Part shown: one piece after another, positions 4,835-61,852 of the stretch
Layout: each line of letters begins with the position of its first letter
Position numbering within the stretch: the stretch's first letter is position 1
Origin: an uncultured Gammaproteobacteria bacterium
GTDB lineage: Bacteria > Patescibacteriota > Patescibacteriia > VMEV01 > CAZAJQ01
NCBI GenBank assembly: GCA_964485795.1
Contig: CAZAJQ010000001.1
Span: 142,014 to 206,013 of the forward strand
DNA length: 64,000 bases
Direction: 5' to 3'
The notes under the pieces: model-generated
Database searches by the model: none
What the model saw: only the letters and a program-made list of their open reading frames with translations
Told to the model about the DNA's origin: nothing
Position numbers and translations under genes: made by a program

Positions 4835-6118
4835 ATGGCCACAGCCGAAGAAAAAAATTATCTTGAAGAAATGCTTCGCCAGCAAATCTTGGCCAATGCC
4901 GAAAAATCTTCCGCGATAGCGGATATCGGTGCCATTCGATCTCTGACCGGATCGACTCCCGTCACGGAAATCGTGGATAGGCTCATTGAAACCGCAATGA
5001 AAGTACGGGTTTCGGACATTCATTTCGATCCCACGGAATACCACCTCATCATACGATATCGTATCGATGGAATTCTTTATGATGTTTTATTGTTGCCGGT
5101 GAGACTTCTGGTGGTGATCATCACACGATTGAAAGTTCTCGCGAATTTGAGAACCGATGAACACGCTTCGGCTCAAGACGGACGCATCCAGAGGCAATTC
5201 GGCACGCAAACCATCGATATTCGTCTATCGATCATGCCGGCCTACTACGGTGAAAATGCGGTCATGCGCCTTCTCGTATCCGGAGCGCAATCTTTGAAAC
5301 TTCTGGATCTCGGATTTCGAGAGCAAGACATGGAAAAAATCAACGCGGCGATTCGTCTGCCCTACGGAATGATCCTCACCACAGGACCGACCGGATCCGG
5401 GAAAACCACCACGCTCTACGCCATGATAAATGAAATCAACAAGCGAGAAATGTCCATCATCACGATCGAAGACCCCATCGAATTTTCCATACCGGGAATC
5501 ACGCAAATCCCGGTAAACGTGCAAACCGGACTCACCTTTGCGAAAGGACTTCGCTCGATAGTGCGGCAAGATCCCGACATCATGATGGTCGGAGAAATTC
5601 GCGATTCGGAAACGGCCGGAATCGCGGTCAACTCGGCGATGACCGGACATCTCGTGCTCTCCACTTTGCATACCAATGACGCCGCGGTTACCCTGCCGCG
5701 ATTGCTTGATATGGAAGTCGAAGCTTTTTTGATCGCATCGACCGTGAATCTCGCCATCGGACAAAGACTGGTTCGCAAACTGTGCCAATCGTGCAAAGCG
5801 CCCCATGAAGTGACAAATCCCGAAAAACTCGCTTTCGCTTCTTTTGTGGACGAAAAATGGCTGGACGCTCACAAATTTCACGAACCCGTCGGATGCAACG
5901 ATTGCAACAATAAAGGCTATAAAGGACGCGTGGGGATTTTTGAAATCATGCCCATGAGCGAAAAGATCCGCCATGCCATCATGCAAAACAGCAATGCGCA
6001 GCTCATACGAAGCATCGCCATAGAAGAAGGGATGACCACCATGCTGCAAGACGGTTTGGTAAAAGCCGCGTCCGGAATCACCAGCCTGCAGGAAATTCTC
6101 CGCGTATTTCATGAATAA
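4835..6118 (+). CDS. type IV pilus / competence pseudopilus assembly ATPase (PilB/GspE/ComGA family, short form)
   Basis: Walker A GPTGSGKTT, Asp/His boxes, and a C-terminal tetracysteine CQSC...CNDC. At 427 aa it lacks the long N-terminal GspE domain, as ComGA-type ATPases do. Confidence 0.9.
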   Translation: MATAEEKNYLEEMLRQQILANAEKSSAIADIGAIRSLTGSTPVTEIVDRLIETAMKVRVSDIHFDPTEYHLIIRYRIDGILYDVLLLPVRLLVVIITRLKVLANLRTDEHASAQDGRIQRQFGTQTIDIRLSIMPAYYGENAVMRLLVSGAQSLKLLDLGFREQDMEKINAAIRLPYGMILTTGPTGSGKTTTLYAMINEINKREMSIITIEDPIEFSIPGITQIPVNVQTGLTFAKGLRSIVRQDPDIMMVGEIRDSETAGIAVNSAMTGHLVLSTLHTNDAAVTLPRLLDMEVEAFLIASTVNLAIGQRLVRKLCQSCKAPHEVTNPEKLAFASFVDEKWLDAHKFHEPVGCNDCNNKGYKGRVGIFEIMPMSEKIRHAIMQNSNAQLIRSIAIEEGMTTMLQDGLVKAASGITSLQEILRVFHE

Positions 6119-6126
6119 TTTTTCCC

Positions 6127-7215
6127 ATGAAAACCATCATAAACAATGACCGAAGTTTAAATATTTCTCCCTTCCTCCATATTTCCGAGCGTGAAAAAAT
6201 GTTTTTTGCGCGATATCTTTCCATACTCTTGCGCTCGGGAATCCCGCTCTTAAAATCCGTCGAAAGCATTCGAAAAAACACCCGATCCAAACATTTTCAG
6301 AAAATATTGGATATTGTATTGGTGGATCTCAACAGCGGTCTTTTTTTGGCCACCAGTCTGGATCGTTTCCGAAAAATATTTTCGCGGTCTTTCGTGAGTA
6401 TCGTGAAAGTCGGTGAAGAATCGGGACAACTCGCCGAATCGCTGAATAAGCTCTCTATCCAAATGCAAAAAAACGAAGAACTTCGAGCGAAAGTCGTCAC
6501 GGCCTTCATCTATCCGATGATTCTCATCGTGGCGTCGCTCTCCGTGGCCGGATATCTGGTGGCGTTTGTGATACCAAACCTTCTTCCAGTGTTCACATCT
6601 TTGAATGTCGCCCTGCCTTTCACCACCCGAACCGTCATCTGGGTATCGGATTTTTTCATCACCAAATATTGGTTGGTATTTCTGATCATTTTTTCCATCA
6701 TCGTGACTCTGCGTTTTCTGTTTATGATCGAAAAATTCGCGTATTCCGTGGACGCTTTGCTTCTGAAAACACCGCTGATAGGCAATATTTTAAAAAACGC
6801 GCAGTTGGCTTTTTTCAGTCGCATTTTGAGCATCATGATAACGTCGGGAGTGAATATCGTCGACGCGATAGCTACGACGAGCAACGCACTGTCAAATCGC
6901 GTTTACAAAAAAAGATTGCATGACATGGGACTTTCTCTCAACAAGGGACAATACATCTACTCGGCGCTGGCCGACCAGCCCGATCTTTTTCCGAGCATGG
7001 TACTCCAGATGATCGAAGTCGGAGAAAAAACGGGAAAATTGCCGGATACTTTGCTTTTTGTCTCGGATTTTTCAGAGGAAGAAGCGGAACGATCCATCAG
7101 TCGTCTTTCCATATTCGTCGAGCCGGTCATCCTTCTTTTCATGGGATTTTTGGTCGGATTCATCGCCATTGCGGTCGTAACGCCAATCTATCAGCTCACC
7201 ACCGGCATTCGATGA
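6127..7215 (+). CDS. type IV pilus / T2SS platform protein (PilC/GspF/ComGB family)
   Basis: Two GspF-like repeats, polytopic membrane topology, and a position immediately downstream of the ATPase. Confidence 0.85.
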   Translation: MKTIINNDRSLNISPFLHISEREKMFFARYLSILLRSGIPLLKSVESIRKNTRSKHFQKILDIVLVDLNSGLFLATSLDRFRKIFSRSFVSIVKVGEESGQLAESLNKLSIQMQKNEELRAKVVTAFIYPMILIVASLSVAGYLVAFVIPNLLPVFTSLNVALPFTTRTVIWVSDFFITKYWLVFLIIFSIIVTLRFLFMIEKFAYSVDALLLKTPLIGNILKNAQLAFFSRILSIMITSGVNIVDAIATTSNALSNRVYKKRLHDMGLSLNKGQYIYSALADQPDLFPSMVLQMIEVGEKTGKLPDTLLFVSDFSEEEAERSISRLSIFVEPVILLFMGFLVGFIAIAVVTPIYQLTTGIR

Positions 7216-7273
7216 TGATCGGACGAAAAAAAATCCTCTCGGTGATGGATACTCTCAAGTAAACTGACCTATT

Positions 7274-7738
7274 ATGCGCATCCGACCAAGGGAAAAGGGA
7301 TTTACCCTCATGGAAATGATCATCGGACTTGCTCTCATTCTTCTCACGCTCACGGGAATCGTGGCGATAAGCAACACTTACCTCATCAATCAACAGCTCG
7401 ACAATGCGGCTGAAAGCGCGCTTGAAGAAATACGACGTGCGCAGGGAGATGCGATAGCCGCCACCGGAGATTCCGGTCACGGAATAAAAATCATCGGATC
7501 GACGCTCATTCGTTTTCGAGGAAATTCGTTCGCTACCAGAAACGCGATTTATGACGTCGATTCGACGTTTCCGCCATTTCTCAGCTTTGGCGGAAACGAT
7601 GAAATCATTTTTCCGAAATTAAGCCCGGCCCCTGTCGCCGCAGCTTCCCTCACAATCTCAAACAACATTGAGCTATACACCATTTCAACATCTCTCTATG
7701 GAAATATTTCGCTCTCAAGAGGGTCAGTCGCTCCTTGA
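7274..7738 (+). CDS. prepilin-type pseudopilin (ComGC-like)
   Basis: N-terminus MRIRPREKGFTLMEMIIGLALILLTL, i.e. G|FTLME followed by a hydrophobic helix. Confidence 0.7.
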   Translation: MRIRPREKGFTLMEMIIGLALILLTLTGIVAISNTYLINQQLDNAAESALEEIRRAQGDAIAATGDSGHGIKIIGSTLIRFRGNSFATRNAIYDVDSTFPPFLSFGGNDEIIFPKLSPAPVAAASLTISNNIELYTISTSLYGNISLSRGSVAP

Positions 7739-9080
7739 GGTTTTGATAGCTCTCACCATCATCGTCATCATCATGAGCGGTATTTTCCCGTTGCTGGGGA
7801 CGCAAATACTCGGCATCGTCGACAGTCAAGACAGGATCGAAGCCATGTACCTCGCTCGGGAAGGAGTGCAGGCCAGCCGCGCCATACACAGTCGATCGTT
7901 TCATGAGCTTCTCGACGGCATTCATGGTCTCAGCCTCACGAACGGATCATGGCAATGGTCGGGATCCAGCGATCAATACGACAAATTCACTCGATCCGTC
8001 ACGATCAGCAGCCCCGATCTGGTCACAAAACAAATTTCTTCACAAATTCTCTGGACGGATACCTCGGGGTTGCAGCAAACCCTTGATTTCACCTTTAACG
8101 CTTTATTCACCGACTGGTATCAAATAGACGTTTGGGGCAACTGGACCGATCTGCAGCTTTTGGGGCAAATAGATATAGGAGCGACCGCACAAGGCAATGG
8201 GATCGACACCGACGGCATCACGGCTTTCATCGCGGCAAGCGCGGCAACCGGAAAACCAAAACTCTACAGCTTCAATGTCGCAAACAAATCCGCTCCGGTA
8301 CTGCTGCAATCTTTGGATACCGGAGACTCACTCAACGACGTCGTCATGTACGGCAATTACATTTTTACCGCCGGCACAAAAGACAATGAAGAACTGCGCG
8401 TCTTTGACGCAAGCAATCCCTCATCGATGATACCGGTAACGGTCATCAATCTCTCTTTAGACGCAAAAAAACTTATTATCCAGAACACGTCTCTCTTCGT
8501 GGTGGCGGAGCAGACACTTTTTATCTTTGATATCGGCAATCCCGCCGCCCCGACGCTCCTTTCGTCATCCGCTCTCGCATCAGCCGGCAATGATATCGAT
8601 GTCGTGAATGACAGGGCTTATATCGCGACCGGTGCCGACATATCTGAAGTGCAAATTTTTGACATTTCAAATTTTTCCTCCCCCGTCCTTATCGATTCAA
8701 TCGATATCGTCGGCATCGCCGATGCTCTTTCGCTGAATGCGCAAGAAAACTTCATCATCATCGGCATGGGATCAAACTCGGCGGGAGCTGAGCTTTTTCT
8801 CTATGACATTACGGATCCATTCTCCCCGATTTTGCGGTCAGCCGTGGAACAGTCAAATGATGTAATGGCAATAGAATTTGCGATTCCCTATGTTTTCATA
8901 GGAACCGCGGATGCAAATGAAGAGCTCAAAATCTATGATTTTCGCGACACGCAATCCCCCGTCAAAATCGATTTCATCAATCTTTCGCAGCTGGTAAGAG
9001 ATATGATCATGAAAGACAATACTCTTTACGCGACGGTAAGGAGTCAAGATTCTCTAAAAATTATCGGTCCGTCTTTATGA
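7698..9080 (+). CDS. pilin-like protein with a C-terminal LVIVD-repeat beta-propeller domain (candidate pilus-associated adhesin)
   Basis: Prepilin-like N-terminus MEIFRSQEG|QSLLEVLIALTIIVII. It is followed by at least four LVIVD-type repeats (ELRVFDASNPSS, VQIFDISNFSSP, LFLYDITDPFSP, LKIYDFRDTQSP). Start moved to the internal ATG at 7698; the ORF track starts at 7668 and overlaps the upstream gene. Confidence 0.65.
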   Translation: MEIFRSQEGQSLLEVLIALTIIVIIMSGIFPLLGTQILGIVDSQDRIEAMYLAREGVQASRAIHSRSFHELLDGIHGLSLTNGSWQWSGSSDQYDKFTRSVTISSPDLVTKQISSQILWTDTSGLQQTLDFTFNALFTDWYQIDVWGNWTDLQLLGQIDIGATAQGNGIDTDGITAFIAASAATGKPKLYSFNVANKSAPVLLQSLDTGDSLNDVVMYGNYIFTAGTKDNEELRVFDASNPSSMIPVTVINLSLDAKKLIIQNTSLFVVAEQTLFIFDIGNPAAPTLLSSSALASAGNDIDVVNDRAYIATGADISEVQIFDISNFSSPVLIDSIDIVGIADALSLNAQENFIIIGMGSNSAGAELFLYDITDPFSPILRSAVEQSNDVMAIEFAIPYVFIGTADANEELKIYDFRDTQSPVKIDFINLSQLVRDMIMKDNTLYATVRSQDSLKIIGPSL

Positions 9081-9577
9081 TCTCATCTCCGAGTCAAAAA
9101 GGATTCACGCTCTTGGAATTCATCATCTACACGACGCTGACGACTCTTATCATGGGAATACTCGTGATCATTTCCATTTCGACGCTTCGCTCCCGAGCCT
9201 TATCAAACAACGACCTGATCGTTCAAAGAAACATGACGGTGGCGTTTGAAACGATCATAACAAAAATCGAGAAGGCAAACGCCATCACCGCTCCGACATC
9301 GGGAACCTCGAACACGCTTGAACTCACCGGCGATGATCCGCTCAAGTATCCATCGATTTTCACTTTGAACGCGGGGAAATTGATGCTGTCTGTCGCCGGC
9401 TCCGCGACCGAACCCCTGACATCCGATGACGTTGCGGTTACGGATTTTTCCGTAACAAGAATGAGCGATCCCATAGACGGCGCGCAAATATCCTTGAGCA
9501 TCGAAACGAAAAATCCTCCCACACCCGATCTGTATTCAAAAGAAAATCTCCGGACGACGATAATGCTTTCTTACTGA
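9077..9577 (+). CDS. prepilin-type pseudopilin
   Basis: N-terminus MISSPSQKGFTLLEFIIYTTLTTLIMGIL, i.e. G|FTLLE. The ATGA overlap with the upstream gene suggests translational coupling. Confidence 0.7.
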   Translation: MISSPSQKGFTLLEFIIYTTLTTLIMGILVIISISTLRSRALSNNDLIVQRNMTVAFETIITKIEKANAITAPTSGTSNTLELTGDDPLKYPSIFTLNAGKLMLSVAGSATEPLTSDDVAVTDFSVTRMSDPIDGAQISLSIETKNPPTPDLYSKENLRTTIMLSY

Positions 9578-9578
9578 T

Positions 9579-10046
9579 ATGTCAAAATTTCCTTCACGAA
9601 AAAATCCCACCCCGAAGTTAAGCGAAGCACATACTTCAGGGTTCACCCTAAAGTTAAGCGAAGCGCATACTTCAGGGTTCACCCTCATCGTCGCCGTCAT
9701 CATCATGACGGCCGCGTTCGTATTGATCGTGGTGCTGGGGGCAAAAAGCTTTCGATACACCAGTAGCGTCATCCAAGCTCAGATCGATCAGACGACGACA
9801 AATCTCCTCGCCGAATCATGCGCCCAGAAGGTGCTCCGCATGATCGTGGATAATTCAAATTACCCCGGAAATGAAACAATCACCAATCCCGAAGGAGATT
9901 GCACACTCTACCCGATAGCTCCCGGAGTGCCAGCCGATATCGATATTGAAGCGACAATACGCGATCATACCACGAGATTGCGCGTCACCATCGATTCAAA
10001 AACACCTCCCAATGTCATAAAATGGGAAAAATTGGAAAACTTTTAA
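9579..10046 (+). CDS. pilin-like / small membrane protein whose 5' region is built from a tandem hairpin repeat
   Basis: Its ATG lies 1 nt after the upstream stop. The N-terminal residues KLSEAHTSGFTL KLSEAHTSGFTL are encoded by two tandem copies of the 32 nt hairpin repeat. A hydrophobic helix (IVAVIIMTAAFVLIVVLG) follows but lacks E at +5. An alternative start at ATG 9711 would place the repeats in the intergenic region. Confidence 0.45.
   Translation: MSKFPSRKNPTPKLSEAHTSGFTLKLSEAHTSGFTLIVAVIIMTAAFVLIVVLGAKSFRYTSSVIQAQIDQTTTNLLAESCAQKVLRMIVDNSNYPGNETITNPEGDCTLYPIAPGVPADIDIEATIRDHTTRLRVTIDSKTPPNVIKWEKLENF
9609..9686 (+). repeat. two tandem copies of the 32 nt hairpin repeat CCCTGAAGTTAAGCGAAGCGCATACTTCAGGG (family A)
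   Basis: Near-identical adjacent copies, each able to form a 9 bp stem (CCCTGAAGT/ACTTCAGGG) with a 14 nt loop. The same element recurs at 10727, 20079 and 20521. Confidence 0.8.
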
Positions 10047-10726: not shown

Positions 10727-10762
10727 CACCCTGAAGTTAAGCGAAGCGCATACTTCAGGGTA
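10727..10762 (+). repeat. single copy of the family A hairpin repeat, immediately upstream of tRNA-Arg
   Basis: ACCCTGAAGTTAAGCGAAGCGCATACTTCAGGGTA is identical to the consensus seen at 9609-9686. Confidence 0.8.
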
Positions 10763-10774
10763 TACCTTCTTTTG

Positions 10775-10846
10775 GCTCCTGTAGTTCAATGGATAGAACA
10801 CGGGTTTGCGGAGCCCGTGATCCAGGTTCGATTCCTGGCGGGAGCA
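10775..10846 (+). tRNA. tRNA-Arg (anticodon GCG, inferred)
   Basis: Manual cloverleaf: acceptor GCTCCTG/CGGGAGC, D-arm GTTC...GAAC, anticodon stem CGGGT/GCCCG with loop TTGCGGA, T-arm CCAGG TTCGATT CCTGG, discriminator A. The anticodon assignment was read by eye. Confidence 0.7.
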
Positions 10847-20078: not shown

Positions 20079-20150
20079 ACCCCTGCAGTAGAACGAAGCG
20101 CACACTGCAGGGTAAACCCCTGCAGTTAAACGATGCGCATACTGCAGGAT
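20079..20150 (+). repeat. two tandem variant copies of the family A hairpin repeat (CTGCAG variant)
   Basis: CCCTGCAGTAGAACGAAGCGCACACTGCAGGG and CCCTGCAGTTAAACGATGCGCATACTGCAGGA. The A-to-C change in the 5' arm is matched by a T-to-G change in the 3' arm, so the stem pairing is preserved. Confidence 0.75.
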
Positions 20151-20151
20151 T

Positions 20152-20475
20152 TCATGCGACAAATCTTAACCTCAAAACCAATCGAGACCCTGTTTTCTCA
20201 TGCAAATGAGCCAAAACTTCCGCTTCGCGCATTTTGATCTCCGAGGCGATCGACGAATTCTTCACGGATATCGCGAGACTTTGCTGACGGATATACCGCG
20301 CTTCGGCTTCTTTCGTCGCTTCTTGACCAAAAGTCTTGGCCAGCCATTTTTGAAAAACGTCCATCACCAGAAGCTTTTCCATATCTTCGCCAAGGGCATC
20401 GGTTTTCATCTTGCGCTTCAAAATATTTTTCAGAGAATCCATAGTCTTTGTTGCCAAGATGATTTCAGGTCTCAT
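20152..20475 (-). CDS. DUF721/DciA-like protein
   Basis: About 100 aa protein whose pattern (EKLLVMDVFQKW...SLAISVKNSSIASEIKMREAEVLAHL...RLVLRLRF) matches the DUF721 family usually found near replication/repair genes. Assigned from memory of the family pattern. Confidence 0.45.
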   Translation of the reverse strand: MRPEIILATKTMDSLKNILKRKMKTDALGEDMEKLLVMDVFQKWLAKTFGQEATKEAEARYIRQQSLAISVKNSSIASEIKMREAEVLAHLHEKTGSRLVLRLRFVA

Positions 20476-20520
20476 TTTGAGACTGTAAAAAAATTATGAA
20501 ATACGAAGCTCTGGAGCGAG

Positions 20521-20551
20521 CCCTAAGTATGCGCTTTGCTTAACTTCAGGG
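20521..20551 (-). repeat. reverse-orientation copy of the family A hairpin repeat
   Basis: Reverse complement of CCCTAAGTATGCGCTTTGCTTAACTTCAGGG matches the consensus with two mismatches. Confidence 0.7.
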
Positions 20552-20604
20552 TGAGTAGTTCGCATTTTGCTACTGTCTCATTTTTGATTTTTTTTCAAAT
20601 GTCT

Positions 20605-23568
20605 CTACAACTTTCGATACTCGCATATTTCTTTGTAGTCGCAATATTTGCACTTTTGCGGAGCCGGATCCGGATGAAATACGCCTTTTCGAATTTCAGC
20701 CACGAGCTGCATGATTTTTTCTTTCAATTGTTCTAAATCTTTTTCTTTTCCCAAAAAAGAAAGAGGCTTGTTTTCATTGAGGTAATAAAATTCCAACTCC
20801 GCGACTTTTCTTCCCATGCACTCGGAAGCAGCGAGCTGATAGAGCAAGAGCTGATCCTTTTCAACCGTTTTTTCGGTCTTTACTCCGCCGGTTTTATAAT
20901 CCACGATCTTGACGCTTCCGTCTCCGACATTATCCACCCTATCCATGACTCCCCGCAAGGTAACGTCTCCGATTTTGAGATGAAACCCTTTTTCGACAAA
21001 GAGCACGTCCGGCCAAGCGTCGCGATGCTTTTCAAAAAATCCCCGCAAAATTTCCCTTCCTTTTTTTCGGTAATTTTCTTTTTGAACAGCGTTTTCATAC
21101 CATTCGTCAATCCACGATTCCTCATAATATCTCATCAGATCCTCAAGTGACGGCGGTGTAAGCGGTTTTTCGCTCGCATCCGAAAAAAGAGATCCTTGCC
21201 GCCGATCTTTCGCGACGACCAAGATGGAAAAAAACTTCTGCAGACACGAATGCAAGGTTTTTCCGAAGCTGAACGCCGCTTTTCCGGCTACGGGAATTTT
21301 CACGATAAAGGCGTAACGATATTGCCACGGGCAGGTTTCAAAAGATTTGATCTGCGTAAAACTCAAATGCTTGGGAATCTCGGCCGGCACAAGCGCGTTT
21401 TTTTCGCTCCGTTTCGTTTTTGGAAATCCGAGCATGACGCCGCCGAAAACATGCGTCGGAATCTCTTTGACCGTGTCGGATTCGTTCACCAAACCGGCCT
21501 CATGCAAGAATCTTGAAAGTTTCTTTTTCCTTTTTCCTCCGTAATTTTCCGCCGAGGTGAAGAACAAGCTTGCCTTCGCGCGGGTGATGGCGACATAAAA
21601 CAAACGTCTTTCTTCTTCGAGATGAGTATCTCCCTCGGGGATAATCTCCTTGATCAAAGCCGAAGGTATCAAAATCGCATCTTTTCGCTCGCTTGTCGGG
21701 AAACGCCGGTCGACCATGTTGACGACAAACACATGTTCGAATTCGAGCCCCTTGGCGCCATGCACCGTCATGATTTTGACGCTGTCGGGACCGTCATCCG
21801 GCTTTGCCCCCAAAGCTCCTTCGTCTCCGGCCTCAAGATAAAATTTTTGATGCGACAAAAACGCTTTCAAGGAACGATCCTTGGAAGTTTCTTCAAATCT
21901 CTTTATAAATAGATACAATTGATTGAGGTGATCAAAATGTTCCAAAGACTCGGCTTCCGGCAATTTCTGCAATCCGCGAATGACTCCAATATCCGATACC
22001 GCTTCCAAAAAAATGTTGCTCGCGTTCGTCGCTCGAGATTTTTGACCGTGTTTTTTGATAAGCGACACGATTCTTTCCGCGTTTTTGCAAAACTCGGGGG
22101 AAAAACCCAAGGCGCTTGCCCGAAGAAACACTTCGTGAAGCGACCATGCTTTTTTGCGGGCGACCTGCATTGCCGCCATGACTTCCTCTCGCGAAAATCC
22201 CACGGAATCCATGTTGATCACCCGATACATGGCGCCGCTCTCGTGATAATCGTCAAGCAACTTCAGATACGAAAGCAAATCCATGATGAGCGGCTTCAAA
22301 AAAAGTCCGGATGACGCATAATACGTAAAGGGAATCATCGCAGCTTCAAAAGCGGCCACAAAAGGATCGGCGGCTCGGTTTGAGCGTATCAAAATGGCGA
22401 AATCCGACCATGCGCAAGATGTTTTTTCCCGCATTTCAACGATCTTTTGGATCACTCCCGTCACTTCATCATCCCCGGTGGCGAAATGAAGATATTCGAC
22501 GGTGCCGGTCTTGCGGTCATGCGCCAATAGCTTTTTTTCGATATGCAGTCGTTCTTCGAGACGATTGGGATTGTTGTGCACGATGCACCGGTACGCCAGA
22601 TCCAAAATGTTTTGCGATGAACGATAATTTTGCGTCAAAACGATTTCTTTCGCGTCCGGATAATCCTTTTTGAACGTCAGAATATTGCTGATCGATGCCC
22701 CGCGAAATTTATAAATGGCTTGATCATCGTCCCCCACGACCACAAGGTTGTTGTGCGGAGATGAAAGCATTTTTACGATCTCATATTGCGCAAAATTCGT
22801 GTCTTGAAATTCGTCCACGAGAATGTATTTGAATTGCTTGAGATACAGTCCCAAAATATGATTGCGTTTGGAAAAAAGGCGCAGCGTATCGGTAATCAAA
22901 TCGCCAAAATCCAAAGCCGAATTTTCGAGTAAAACGTTTTGGTACGTATGATAGGCGTCGGCGATTTCAGAGACGCGATCCGTCTCGTTTCGGTCGGCGC
23001 TTCCTTCGGCGATTGGTCCGTTTTTGACGTCCAAAGCCGTATCGGCGTCAAGCTTTAAACTTTTCGCGTACTCCACATAGCTTTCCGGAAAAATGGCTTC
23101 GTCCTTGCATTTGGAAAAATGGTTCAGCATCGCGACGATAAACTTGGTGGGATTTCCCAAGGGACGATAATAATCGAGCCGAAAACGCGCGAAATTCTCA
23201 AAAACCAGCTTCCAGCGTTCGGTGTCGGAAAGGATGCGAAAATCGTTTGGCAATCCGATATCCATGCCGTTGCGTTGCAATACGCGTTCGCAAAACGCAT
23301 GAAACGTCATGATCCACAAATCAAAATATCCATAAGGAAGCAAACGATCCACCCGTTCTTCCATCTCTTCCGCCGCCTTGTCGGTAAATGTCAGCGCAAG
23401 GATTTCTTCGGGTTTCGCCAGTCCGCTGTCAATGAGATAGGCGATGCGGGAGGTGATCACGGTCGTTTTCCCGGTACCCGCGCCGGCGACGATCAAAAGC
23501 GGCCCCGCCCCGTGCATGGCCGCTTCTTTTTGAGCTTGGTTGAGCGTATCCAAGTATGAAAATGCCAT
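20605..23568 (-). CDS. UvrD/PcrA-family helicase fused to a C-terminal PD-(D/E)xK Cas4/AddB-like Fe-S nuclease domain
   Basis: Walker A AGAGTGKTT and UvrD motifs (YILVDEFQDTN, VVGDDDQAIYKFRGA, TVHGAKGLEF). C-terminal domain with conserved Cys (ETCPWQYRY ... CKYCDYKEIC) and nuclease motifs (IVDYKTG). Confidence 0.85.
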   Translation of the reverse strand: MAFSYLDTLNQAQKEAAMHGAGPLLIVAGAGTGKTTVITSRIAYLIDSGLAKPEEILALTFTDKAAEEMEERVDRLLPYGYFDLWIMTFHAFCERVLQRNGMDIGLPNDFRILSDTERWKLVFENFARFRLDYYRPLGNPTKFIVAMLNHFSKCKDEAIFPESYVEYAKSLKLDADTALDVKNGPIAEGSADRNETDRVSEIADAYHTYQNVLLENSALDFGDLITDTLRLFSKRNHILGLYLKQFKYILVDEFQDTNFAQYEIVKMLSSPHNNLVVVGDDDQAIYKFRGASISNILTFKKDYPDAKEIVLTQNYRSSQNILDLAYRCIVHNNPNRLEERLHIEKKLLAHDRKTGTVEYLHFATGDDEVTGVIQKIVEMREKTSCAWSDFAILIRSNRAADPFVAAFEAAMIPFTYYASSGLFLKPLIMDLLSYLKLLDDYHESGAMYRVINMDSVGFSREEVMAAMQVARKKAWSLHEVFLRASALGFSPEFCKNAERIVSLIKKHGQKSRATNASNIFLEAVSDIGVIRGLQKLPEAESLEHFDHLNQLYLFIKRFEETSKDRSLKAFLSHQKFYLEAGDEGALGAKPDDGPDSVKIMTVHGAKGLEFEHVFVVNMVDRRFPTSERKDAILIPSALIKEIIPEGDTHLEEERRLFYVAITRAKASLFFTSAENYGGKRKKKLSRFLHEAGLVNESDTVKEIPTHVFGGVMLGFPKTKRSEKNALVPAEIPKHLSFTQIKSFETCPWQYRYAFIVKIPVAGKAAFSFGKTLHSCLQKFFSILVVAKDRRQGSLFSDASEKPLTPPSLEDLMRYYEESWIDEWYENAVQKENYRKKGREILRGFFEKHRDAWPDVLFVEKGFHLKIGDVTLRGVMDRVDNVGDGSVKIVDYKTGGVKTEKTVEKDQLLLYQLAASECMGRKVAELEFYYLNENKPLSFLGKEKDLEQLKEKIMQLVAEIRKGVFHPDPAPQKCKYCDYKEICEYRKL

Positions 23569-30473: not shown

Positions 30474-30508
30474 ACGTTCACTTTTTTTCTTAGTATAACA
30501 CAGAAGAT

Positions 30509-30538
30509 AGTACTCAGTACTCAGTGCTCAGTAGTCAG
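30509..30538 (+). repeat. heptamer tandem repeat (TACTCAG)x4
   Basis: AGTACTCAGTACTCAGTGCTCAGTAGTCAG between the glycosyltransferase start and the glyS stop. The same heptamer array occurs at 40077 and 51313. Confidence 0.75.
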
Positions 30539-34471: not shown

Positions 34472-34785
34472 AAAGAGCCCGCCCTCCGTCATCCTCCGCT
34501 TACCGCCAAAGCCCTCCCCCCTTCTACGAATACGTGCGCTTGCCGCGAAGCCCCCCCCTCCGTCATCCTCCGCTGCGCTACGGATGACACCTCCCCTTGT
34601 CCAAGGGGAGGATAGAGTACGAAAGAGTTTCCTCCCCTTACACAAGGGGAGGTGCCCGAAGGGCGGAGGGGTGAGCTCCGTCGATAGGTGAAGCAGTTCC
34701 GCGAAGAGCGGAGGCCTGCCATCCAAAGTCTGCCTCAGACAGGGACAGTCTTGGGATGGTTGACTTTCCTCCCCTCTCCCTGTAT
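34472..34785 (+). repeat. GC-rich structured repeat cluster (family G), copy 1, between smpB and ssrA
   Basis: Contains hairpins CTCCCCTT(GTCC/ACAC)AAGGGGAG and GCCCGAAGGGC, and the GGAGGGGTGAGCTCCG module shared with loci at 55.4 kb and 61.4 kb. GC content is far above the local average. Confidence 0.8.
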
Positions 34786-34841: not shown

Positions 34842-35238
34842 GGGGATGTTTGGATTTGACGGAATGACTCGATAGGTTTCTATGCAAGACGAGCTCGCCA
34901 TGATGCTCGCAAATCTCCGTGGCACATTATAAGTGCAAACTTATTCGCAAAAGCAAAAGATGCCGTGAAAACTTTTTTTGCGGTACCAAGCTTCAGCATG
35001 GCTATTGCCTAAACGCATCGGCCCATCGCGGCTTTTGAGGATTCATAAGGAGCCCGCGGTGCAATATTCATGAATCTCAGGAAATATGTTCGTCACGCCA
35101 TATTCTCCGAAAATTTTGTGACTGTGATGCGGTCGTTTTGCTTTCTTTCTCAGATCGCATCAAGAATGAAAGAAAGCTACTCTTGAAGAAATAGAATTCT
35201 ATCCATTCCAGACGCGGGTTCGATTCCCGCCATCTCCA
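34842..35238 (+). ncRNA. ssrA: tmRNA (ssrA)
   Basis: 5' end GGGGATGTTTGGATTTGACGG closely parallels E. coli GGGGCTGATTCTGGATTCGACGG. 3' tRNA-like domain GGACGCGGGTTCGATTCCCGCCATCTCCA (T-arm plus acceptor 3' strand pairing with the 5' GGGGATG). Candidate tag frame from resume codon GCA at 34935 (preceded by AUAAGU, like E. coli AUAGUC) to TAA at 35010: ANLFAKAKDAVKTFFAVPSFSMAIA. A shorter tag AVPSFSMAIA is an alternative. Confidence 0.8.
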
Positions 35239-40065: not shown

Positions 40066-40076
40066 AGGTTGGAAGT

Positions 40077-40106
40077 AAGTTCTCAGCAGTCAGTACTCAG
40101 TTCTCA
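40077..40106 (+). repeat. heptamer (TACTCAG-type) repeat in the gap between the two VirB4 ORFs
   Basis: AAGTTCTCAGCAGTCAGTACTCAGTTCTCAG. The same short intergenic segment also contains the GAGAACTTA direct repeats. Confidence 0.6.
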
Positions 40107-40148
40107 GAAATAAGTTCTCAATGCTCGGCAGTGAGCTTGAAGATGGGG

Positions 40149-51316: not shown

Positions 51317-51347
51317 GTACTGAACACAAGTACTCAGTACTCAGTAC
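51313..51347 (+). repeat. heptamer (TACTCAG) repeat forming a 9 bp hairpin, overlapping the exonuclease stop codon
   Basis: CTGAGTACT GAACACA AGTACTCAG TACTCAGTACG. Confidence 0.7.
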
Positions 51348-51371
51348 GCTGGAATCATTATCCGCCACTTC

Positions 51372-55406: not shown

Positions 55407-55690
55407 CGCTTACAAACGATGCCGCCACTCCGCCTACCGACGAAGCACCACCCCTGCCAGAGGCAGGCCTCCGTAAAGGAGCGCTCGTTTCGAAGCAAGG
55501 TATATGCCGCTTATCGCCGAAGCACTACCCCTCTGCCCTTCGGGCATCTCCCCTTGTCCAAGGGGAGGTGGCCGGAGGCCGGAGGGGTGAGCTCCGTGAA
55601 CATGGAGCTTACCTTGTCCGAACCGGAGGCCTGCCTCTGGCAGGGGTGAGGCTTCGTCGATAAACGGGGAGTGTCCCGTCGATACGCGGA
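55407..55690 (+). repeat. GC-rich structured repeat element (family G), copy 2, bounded by 33 bp terminal inverted repeats
   Basis: Left arm CGAAGCACCACCCCTGCCAGAGGCAGGCCTCCG. Right arm is the reverse complement of CGAAGCCTCACCCCTGCCAGAGGCAGGCCTCCG. Internal module CGAAGCACTACCCCTCTGCCCTTCGGGCATCTCCCCTTGTCCAAGGGGAGGTGGCCGGAGGCCGGAGGGGTGAGCTCCGTGAACATGGAGCTTAC. Confidence 0.8.
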
Positions 55691-61420: not shown

Positions 61421-61852
61421 TGAAGCAACACACTGCTTACCATCGAAGCCCCACCCCTCTGCCTTTCAGGCATCTCCCCTTACACAAGGGGAGGTGGCCG
61501 CAGGCCGGAGGGGTGAGTTTCGTGAACATGGGAGCTTAACGTATCCAGGCCGGAGGGGTGAGTTTCGTGAACATGGGAGCTTAACGTGTCCCGAGGTTGC
61601 GCTCCATGGATGAGTGCCTTTTCAACGTTCACTCCCCTGCTTGCCACCGAAGCCCTACCCCTCTGCCTTTCAGGCATCTCCCCTTGTCCAAGGGGAGAAA
61701 TTCATAGTGGTACGGGTTTCCTCCCCTTACACAAGGGGAGGTGGCCGCAGGCCCGGAGGGGTGAGTTTCGTAAACATGGGAGCTTAACGTATCCAGGCCG
61801 GAGGGGTGAGTTTCGTGAACATGGGGATTACCATGTCCCCGGAGGGGTGTGC
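61421..61852 (+). repeat. GC-rich structured repeat cluster (family G), copy 3, containing an internal approximately 200 bp segmental duplication and 43 nt tandem sub-repeats
   Basis: Two consecutive copies of the module CGAAGCCC(C/T)ACCCCTCTGCCTTTCAGGCATCTCCCCTT(ACAC/GTCC)AAGGGGAG...GGCCGCAGGCC GGAGGGGTGAGTTTCGTGAACATGGGAGCTTAACGT, each followed by a second GGCCGGAGGGGTGAGTTTCGTGAACATGG unit. Confidence 0.8.

Follow-up and report, generated by a model that had tools for sequence, protein, structure and literature searches.

In Rickettsia, short palindromic repeats known as Rickettsia palindromic elements (RPEs) occur in frame in many unrelated genes, where they encode a conserved peptide that the host proteins tolerate (PMC10969869). 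Prokaryotes also carry transposable elements of the miniature inverted-repeat type (MITEs), whose full-length members measure, for example, 235-400 bp (reviewed in PMC10969869), and insertion sequences (IS) such as IS1247 of the IS1380 family, with inverted repeats of 16 bp and a direct repeat of 5 bp (PMC3281130, Table 2). Here we analyze a far smaller repeat, referred to as family A, in a stretch of 64,000 nucleotides from an uncultured bacterium of the Patescibacteriota (GenBank assembly GCA_964485795.1, contig CAZAJQ010000001.1, positions 142,014 to 206,013 of the forward strand); this whole stretch is called the window below. Family A is a 32-bp palindrome that forms a hairpin, and two tandem copies of it lie in frame in the 5' end of the fourth pilin-like gene of an operon for a type IV pilus or Com-like system.

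Our analysis suggests, with a probability of roughly 0.7, that family A is a non-autonomous mobile element of very small size which has inserted in the pilin leader and is tolerated there as selfish DNA with no function of its own. The pilin gene exemplifies a tiny mobile palindrome that is found across phyla and tolerated in frame. This agrees with one of the readings offered in the original prediction made for this locus, namely that a repetitive extragenic palindromic (REP)-like element inserted into the leader and was co-opted as coding sequence: the element is a mobile palindrome of 32 bp, and its copies lie upstream of the ancestral cleavage site.

Copies and structure of the repeat

The 32-mer CCCTGAAGTTAAGCGAAGCGCATACTTCAGGG matches the window at copies 1, 2 and 3 of Table 1 with two, one and no mismatches, respectively, where the chance expectation in shuffled sequence is 0. 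A looser core pattern, together with a repeat finder, adds three further copies: two with a CTGCAG stem at 20079-20151, and one in the reverse orientation at 20518-20553. When the whole 64-kb window is searched, with filters off, using a covariance model built from 52 copies from many genomes, six copies score 45-63 bits and the rest is noise. The repeat had originally been reported at four places; all six copies there were found again, and with none added by the covariance model the census of the window is complete.

Each copy folds into a hairpin with a 9-bp stem (10 bp with a flanking A-T pair) and a 14-nt loop, in agreement with the dimensions first proposed. The stem, CCCTGAAGT / ACTTCAGGG, constitutes the 9-bp terminal inverted repeats of the element and is preserved by covariation. 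Among the 52 distinct copies, 92% of the stem cells are paired, three of the ten stem pairs have changed on both sides, and the covariation score, which is lost when the pairing register is shifted, is reached by none of 500 shuffles. The compensatory A-to-C and T-to-G change that had been pointed out in the CTGCAG variant is real by the same measure. The copies inside the pilin gene (copies 1 and 2) have one broken stem pair each and fold at -4.4 and -6.4 kcal/mol as DNA and at -11.2 and -11.7 kcal/mol as RNA, and the intergenic copy 3 folds more strongly (-11.6 kcal/mol as DNA, -18.3 as RNA). No Rfam 15 family falls on the hairpin at the gathering threshold, and none that is meaningful up to E=10, in the window and related loci.

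Insertion polymorphism and target duplication

Exact-pattern scans recovered 26 loci from species-representative genomes and 55 from metagenomes, 81 in all, in nearly all of which the same 32-mer is present as a hairpin. Named hosts comprise Verrucomicrobiota, Kiritimatiellota, Bacteroidota and, in the candidate phyla radiation (CPR), Daviesbacteria and WWE3. Near-duplicate loci apart, the loci mostly resemble one another over no more than about 45-60 nt around the hairpin. Viral contigs contain no copy, and PLSDB plasmids contain only a single match, at chance level. In the searchable literature, which was not covered exhaustively, no description of the 32-mer, of the host repeat described below or of the encoded peptides turned up.

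An exact direct repeat abuts the 32-nt core in 24 of the 63 non-redundant copies (4 nt in 13 of them and 5 nt in 11), against an expectation of 1.4 from random re-pairing of left and right flanks, and almost all of these direct repeats read CNNG or CNNNG. In addition, insertion polymorphism is evident in a different palindromic repeat that hosts the element and occurs both empty, as TGTCATCCTGAACGAAGTGAAGGATCTC, and filled, as TGTCATCCTGAACGAAG followed by the 32 nt and CGAAGTGAAGGATCTC, with the hairpin in either orientation.

Protein-coding genes provide a second view of the same process. Two DinG-like helicases from related Verrucomicrobiota, which are 75% identical, carry one copy each at different sites, the 12-residue insert LKLSEAHTSGRA being present in one only and RPEVCASLNFRA in the other only. 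The net gain per insertion is 36 nt (12 residues), that is, the 32 nt with CGCG on either side. The element is likewise in frame in TilS and an ABC ATPase. Of the core's six frames, four lack a stop (LKLSEAHTSG, PEVKRSAYFR, PEVCASLNFR and LKYALRLTSG), and the closed frame of each strand reads CCC TGA. The well-supported coding insertions are all of the 4-nt form, and the copies with a 5-nt duplication are, with one exception, outside called open reading frames (ORFs) and mostly in the host repeat; the ORF of the exception looks spurious. This partition fits a reading-frame filter. Because a 4-bp duplication brings the footprint to 36 nt and four frames are open, the element can persist in real genes as a 12-residue insert. 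The pilin unit is likewise 36 nt long, with TTCA on both sides of copy 2.

Several other features of these loci were observed. The host repeat, TGTCAT(T/C)(C/G)(C/T)GA(A/G)CGAAG(T/C)GA(A/G)G(G/C)AATCTC, is widespread in CPR, Verrucomicrobiota and Bacteroidota loci (L011, L018, L021, L035, L068 and others), and its central CGAAG is the preferred landing site of the hairpin. About a dozen Verrucomicrobiota copies share the flanks ATTAGG to the left and CAACTTTT to the right of the hairpin (L001, L006, L011, L020, L036, L043, L060, L068, L076), and in L007 the flanks are reversed relative to the loop, as would result if the loop had inverted or the same target had been struck in both orientations. 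A small peptide gene in this shared context was considered and rejected, as its frame differs between copies. The two DinG-like helicases (L010 4873-7270 and L064 6220-8755) also differ by low-complexity insertions, for example GRQTTD-rich and SEISNQ-rich ones, and other repeat families may colonize coding sequence in these Verrucomicrobiota.

One Logan contig (L028) matches the window as far as 10760, where a hairpin ends, and then continues as a Daviesbacteria contig, to which it is 100% identical over 1,041 nt (L028 10974-12014). It was considered as a strain variant with a different gene after the hairpin and rejected as a k=31 assembly chimera whose tail is the Daviesbacteria contig. Since the chimera is joined through the hairpin, it shows directly that the identical element is present in two CPR organisms that co-occur.

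The pilin gene and its leader

The pilin gene that carries the tandem copies is the last of its operon and encodes a protein of 155 residues. Its ATG (9579) lies 1 nt beyond the upstream stop (TGA, 9575-9577) and the tandem copies are in frame, as had been claimed, and the translation MSKFPSRKNPTPKLSEAHTSGFTLKLSEAHTSGFTLIV... given with that claim is correct. A Parcubacteria-group metagenome-assembled genome (GCA_016204025.1) encodes an identical product, a hypothetical protein for which NCBI annotates the same start. ATG 9579 is also the sole in-frame start upstream of the G/FTL motif that precedes the helix (the slash marks the predicted cleavage). Read through both copies, the leader is MSKFPSRKNPT-PKLSEAHTSGFT-LKLSEAHTSG/FTLIV....

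A word-indexed search returned no relatives of this pilin, and an exhaustive HMMER search returned 290 at E<=1e-3. Among the best 150 of these 290, nearly all have 120-140 residues, and the alignments mostly begin at about residue 30-33 of the query and about residue 3-10 of the relative. The family can be described by the pattern M-x(2-10)-[KRS]-G-[FY]-x-x-[LIV] and, after it, a hydrophobic helix, a pair of conserved Cys residues and the motif Y-x-G-N-E-T, and the junction of Gly33 and Phe34 in the window protein (G33/FTLIVAVIIMTAAFVLIVVLGA) aligns with the G/F or G/Y junction of this minor-pilin family. Gly stands directly before the hydrophobic run in 142 of 149 homologues, with a median of 10 leader residues to that Gly (interquartile range 7-13), and position +1 is F or Y in 112 of 143 sequences (142 homologues and the window protein). 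The usual Glu at +5 is absent from the window protein, which has Val at this position, as the original prediction noted, and none of the 143 sequences has Glu there. The missing Glu is therefore a trait of the whole family, as in some minor pilins, and not an effect of the repeat.

The closest orthologue (P0002, 54% identity) belongs to an operon with the same gene order (L086). Its start reads TAA-T-ATG-ATG-AAA... and its N-terminus MMKQTQKG/YALIIGVIIL..., which corresponds to a leader of 7-8 residues, and the 16 kb that hold the orthologous operon contain no hairpin. Orthologous loci had been expected to be able to overturn the in-frame reading, by starting at a downstream ATG with the repeats simply intergenic; the L086 gene instead starts before its G/Y motif. 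In terms of protein sequence, L086 is an empty site in an orthologous gene.

The window protein shows the traits of a class III signal peptide, with Gly at -1 and a hydrophobic helix from +1, although its leader has 33 residues versus about 10. Prepilin leaders of this class are cut off by prepilin peptidase and, since the leader is removed, the part of the gene that encodes it would be under little sequence constraint. A minor-pilin homologue of another organism (P0113, L085 3030-3075) has a short (TCTCAAC)n tandem repeat in its leader, which suggests that the leaders of this minor-pilin family tolerate repeat expansions generally. The 'SLNFR' in the P0113 leader was considered as a second hairpin case and rejected: the underlying DNA is the different (TCTCAAC)n repeat, and the covariance model gives no match.

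Proposed origin and mobilization

The pilin locus is laid out as ...AAT CCC A, copy 1, TTCA, copy 2, TTCA CCC TCA TC.... With differences between copies 1 and 2 at 3 of 32 positions, their duplication is not recent, and the two-copy state is identical in three assemblies (the NCBI assembly and two independent Logan assemblies), with no variation in copy number. A native G-F-T-L encoded as GGG TTC ACC CTN would be expected at about 1.2% under local codon usage, and at least the Gly codon is thus most simply derived from the element, which may have landed upstream of an existing Gly or may have replaced one. Models of the pilin sequence before insertion were also tried, and each of them needs several additional substitutions to account for the upstream flank AATCCCA.

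We propose that the mobile unit is the 32-bp palindrome, with its perfect 9-bp terminal inverted repeats, a conserved 14-bp center and a target duplication of 4 or 5 bp, and that it perhaps amounts to a pair of abutting transposase-binding ends and little else. It would be mobilized in trans, presumably by a DDE-type transposase, possibly one that resembles those of IS1380 in using 16-bp ends and producing 4-5-bp duplications; an autonomous partner would then read CCCTGAAGTTAAGCGA ... (0.8-2.5 kb) ... AGCGCATACTTCAGGG, flanked by 4-5-bp repeats. One or two insertions would have brought both copies into the 5' end of the fourth pilin gene, where the leader is encoded, and copy 2 could alternatively stem from a 36-nt slippage duplication between CACCCT repeats. 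Translation would start at ATG 9579 and read through both copies, the GGG in the 3' arm of copy 2 would come to lie at the -1 position, directly before FTLIVAV..., and prepilin peptidase would cut off the whole 33-residue leader, element peptides included, to leave a normal mature minor pilin. Both the order of events at the locus and the processing of the long leader are what we infer from these data.

A number of observations weigh against this proposal. A transposase or autonomous element that carries these ends did not come to light: isolated half-sites number 0 in about 450 kb of fetched loci, and viral contigs and plasmids yielded nothing beyond the chance-level plasmid match. Within the window genome, matching flanks are seen at copy 2 only (TTCA), the other five copies having no target duplication, and a model of TTCA duplication predicts GGNTTCA 5' of copy 1, where the actual sequence is AATCCCA. 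With the closest orthologue only 54% identical, the ancestral pilin junction is not reconstructable. The 33-residue leader also holds a second G/FTL, at residues 21-24, and the conservation of the loop across genomes is overstated, since the scans demanded the loop sequence. None of the 173 ORFs within 1.5 kb of the copies is a recurrent neighbor that could be a candidate for the mobilizing enzyme. The identity of that enzyme and the predicted processing of the leader are the chief uncertainties.

A broader proposal, which we offer tentatively and at less than even odds, is that family A represents an undescribed form of minimal mobile DNA. It would consist of two abutting transposase-binding ends or of a single-stranded hairpin with a GCGAAGC mini-hairpin loop, would be unchanged across CPR, Verrucomicrobiota, Kiritimatiellota and Bacteroidota, and would enter genes as a 12-residue cassette, of which the GGG supplies the -1 Gly of the pilin.

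Alternative explanations

The hairpins might instead be regulatory structures that are selected by the host and act, in the manner of REP sequences, on mRNA stability, processing or translation, with the pilin pair serving as an attenuator of minor-pilin expression. The maintenance of stem pairing through compensatory changes is what such a role would predict; every window copy lies within an operon or beside a tRNA, and the pilin hairpins begin 30 nt past the ATG at about -11 kcal/mol each as RNA. The window copies nevertheless occur in both orientations to transcription (4 and 5 antisense, 6 sense), the copies within the gene are the weakened ones, and the orthologous operon works without any copy. 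The hairpin also lacks the features of an intrinsic terminator: the loop has 14 nt, no T-run abuts or follows the stems, and the terminator-like sites on the transcribed strand coincide with none of the copies. We therefore regard a host-selected role as unlikely, all the more because an identical sequence that is accompanied by target duplications in unrelated phyla and proteins points to spread and not to local function, although a secondary effect on the translation or regulation of the pilin may exist beside mobility. The element could also have moved as single-stranded DNA, by means of a HUH/Y1 enzyme that recognizes hairpins in the style of REP and the REP-associated tyrosine transposase (RAYT) or of IS200/IS605, and not of a DDE transposase. 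The strength of the hairpin, the many insertions at the center (CGAAG) of another palindromic repeat and the GCGAAGC in the loop, which is an extraordinarily stable DNA mini-hairpin motif (PMC13037366), are compatible with this route. It is nonetheless improbable, as the variable 4-5-nt direct repeats at the flanks are the mark of staggered cuts, the flanks show no conserved GTAG-like tetranucleotide, and no Y1 gene was seen near any copy. Y1 enzymes insert beside a fixed short sequence and do not duplicate the target.

The remaining explanations concern the pilin gene itself. The original prediction had allowed that the repeats are intergenic and that the gene starts at a downstream ATG, given as 9711; the codon is present in frame but lies at 9705-9707 (residue 43), and the fact that Pfam N_methyl gives no score on the 155-residue protein could be taken to favor it. 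A start at this codon, however, would give MTAAFVLIVVLGAK... and would lose the G/F junction and nine residues from the beginning of the helix, all of them conserved throughout the homologues; the homologues and the syntenic orthologue start before the G/F or G/Y motif. The 1-nt spacing between the stop and ATG 9579 is shared with L086 (TAA-T-ATG), and the 126 nt of repeat sequence are free of stops even though the core has CCC TGA in one of three frames per strand. The downstream start is accordingly very hard to credit. There is likewise little to commend a contingency locus, in which slippage or recombination would shift the copy number of the tandem pair and so vary the pilin N-terminus, an idea first voiced as a recombination hotspot. 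The 36-nt units keep the frame and have CACCCT direct repeats at their borders, so that slippage could occur, and another tandem pair is present at 20079-20151. But the two-copy sequence is the same in all three assemblies, the divergence of copies 1 and 2 argues against recent duplication, and variation would be confined to a leader that is expected to be removed, leaving the mature pilin unchanged. The reading that best accommodates these observations is still that of a mobile element tolerated in the leader.

Feature coordinates and neighboring repeats

Table 1. Hairpin copies and genes of the pilin operon in the window
Feature	Position	Strand	Description
Hairpin copy 1	9608..9643	+	36-nt unit, core 9610-9641, CCCCGAAGT..ACTTCAGGG, one stem mismatch; 55.2 bits, E 2e-13; product is pilin leader residues 11-22, TPKLSEAHTSGF
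Hairpin copy 2	9644..9679	+	36-nt unit, core 9646-9677, CCCTAAAGT..ACTTCAGGG, one stem mismatch; 57.5 bits; TTCA at either flank; 3' arm forms the Ser32-Gly33 codons, Gly33 being the -1 Gly of the prepilin site
Hairpin copy 3	10727..10762	+	core 10729-10760, perfect 10-bp stem, intergenic; 62.9 bits
Hairpin copy 4	20079..20114	+	CTGCAG stem variant, loop AGAACGAAGCGCAC; first of tandem pair; 45.5 bits
Hairpin copy 5	20116..20151	+	CTGCAG stem variant, loop TAAACGATGCGCAT; second of tandem pair; 47.7 bits
Hairpin copy 6	20518..20553	-	reverse orientation, 3' arm degraded; 45.4 bits
Fourth pilin-like gene	9579..10046	+	155 aa; leader is residues 1-33 (9579-9677)
Predicted cleavage	9675..9680	+	between G33 (9675-9677) and F34 (9678-9680)
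Upstream operon genes (type IV pilus / Com-like)	4835..9577	+	T2SSE ATPase 4835-6118, T2SSF platform 6127-7215
Three prepilins of the same operon	7274-7738, 7668-9080, 9077-9577	+	N-terminal methylation motif

Copy 3 lies 14 nt upstream of a tRNA-Arg(GCG) gene at 10775-10846. The tandem of copies 4 and 5 occupies the 80-nt spacer that separates two minus-strand genes, and copy 6 has as neighbors a UvrD-like helicase gene (20605-23568, minus strand) and dciA (20152-20475, minus strand). The dciA gene, a gene of replication and not a transposase, thus lies between inverted copies of family A, namely the pair of copies 4 and 5 and, across the gene, copy 6.

A link of the hairpin with tRNA genes is possible. 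In two CPR loci the hairpin lies in an insert of 140-170 nt that runs from the 3' end of a tRNA gene to a 16-20-nt direct repeat of that end (L018 2413-2613 in Daviesbacteria, tRNA-Asn; L021 3400-3642 in WWE3, tRNA-Ile), an arrangement that resembles the att (attachment) sites of a miniature integrated element, and another hairpin, whose loop (TAAGCGA) is related, is present in the L021 insert. In L053 (1-60) and L055 (229-300), copies whose stem is a CCATGAAG variant directly abut the 3' ends of tRNA genes on the opposite strand. The hairpin was considered as part of a tRNA-linked integrative element and this was rejected, the tRNA-Arg of the window having no such repeat and most copies being away from tRNAs.

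The window also contains other repeats. A second, unrelated family of GC-rich multi-hairpin repeats, with units such as CTCCCCTTGTCCAAGGGGAG and GGCCGGAGGCC, is found at 34588-34681, 55430-55667 and 61435-61825, and one of its clusters lies just 5' of the transfer-messenger RNA (tmRNA) gene at 34842-35238. Short tandem repeats of heptamers (AGTACTC / CAGTACT-like) occur at 30501-30537, 40070-40134 and 51321-51357.

Implications

The element is unusual in its size of 32 bp, in having an identical sequence across phyla and in a footprint of 36 nt that is neutral to the reading frame. If our proposal is true, the lower size limit of a transposable unit moves toward the bare two ends, and the colonization of genes in frame by palindromic repeats extends beyond Rickettsia to free-living and episymbiotic bacteria of several phyla, with cleaved signal or leader peptides as a safe site for such insertions. 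There are also practical consequences. A peptide such as LKLSEAHTSG or PEVCASLNFR in an otherwise conserved protein is a marker of the element and not of homology. In addition, a 32-nt sequence common to co-occurring organisms yielded a chimeric contig at k=31, which illustrates that short shared repeats can mis-join assemblies.

Comparison with known systems

Among other described repeats, REP sequences and the REP doublets forming hairpins (REPINs) that are associated with RAYTs are similar to the 32-bp element in being imperfect palindromes of 20-40 nt that are mostly intergenic and sometimes arranged in tandem or as inverted pairs. Unlike them, the element lacks a GTAG-type 5' tetranucleotide, has target duplications and is not restricted to a species or genus; no RAYT gene was seen near the copies, the gene between the inverted copies of the window being dciA. 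The small dispersed repeats of cyanobacteria, reportedly described by Elhai et al. as mobile, well under 100 nt, hairpin-forming and nested in other repeats, belong to other sequence families and have another host range. Elements of the IS1380 family have CC termini and 4-5-bp duplications, and their ends offer a lead, as the 32-bp element starts with CC, can be divided into two halves of 16 bp and has duplications of 4-5 bp. The inner 7 bp of its halves do not match, however, and no IS1380-like transposase or full-length element with such ends was found.

With prokaryotic MITEs the element shares more of its anatomy. It is short, non-coding and multi-copy, with terminal inverted repeats and with target-site duplications at sites known in both the filled and the empty state, all of which are features of MITEs, although it is far smaller, appears to consist of little more than two abutting ends and has no parent IS among the sequences found. 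In its behavior it is closer to RPEs, as it too is found in frame in unrelated genes (the DinG-like helicases, TilS, the ABC ATPase and the pilin leader). RPEs, however, measure about 100-150 bp and are confined to Rickettsia, whereas the 32-bp element, with its 36-nt footprint, recurs with its sequence unchanged in four phyla or more. Because size, sequence and hosts all differ, the element itself is not an RPE; the closest known systems are RPEs by behavior and MITEs by anatomy.

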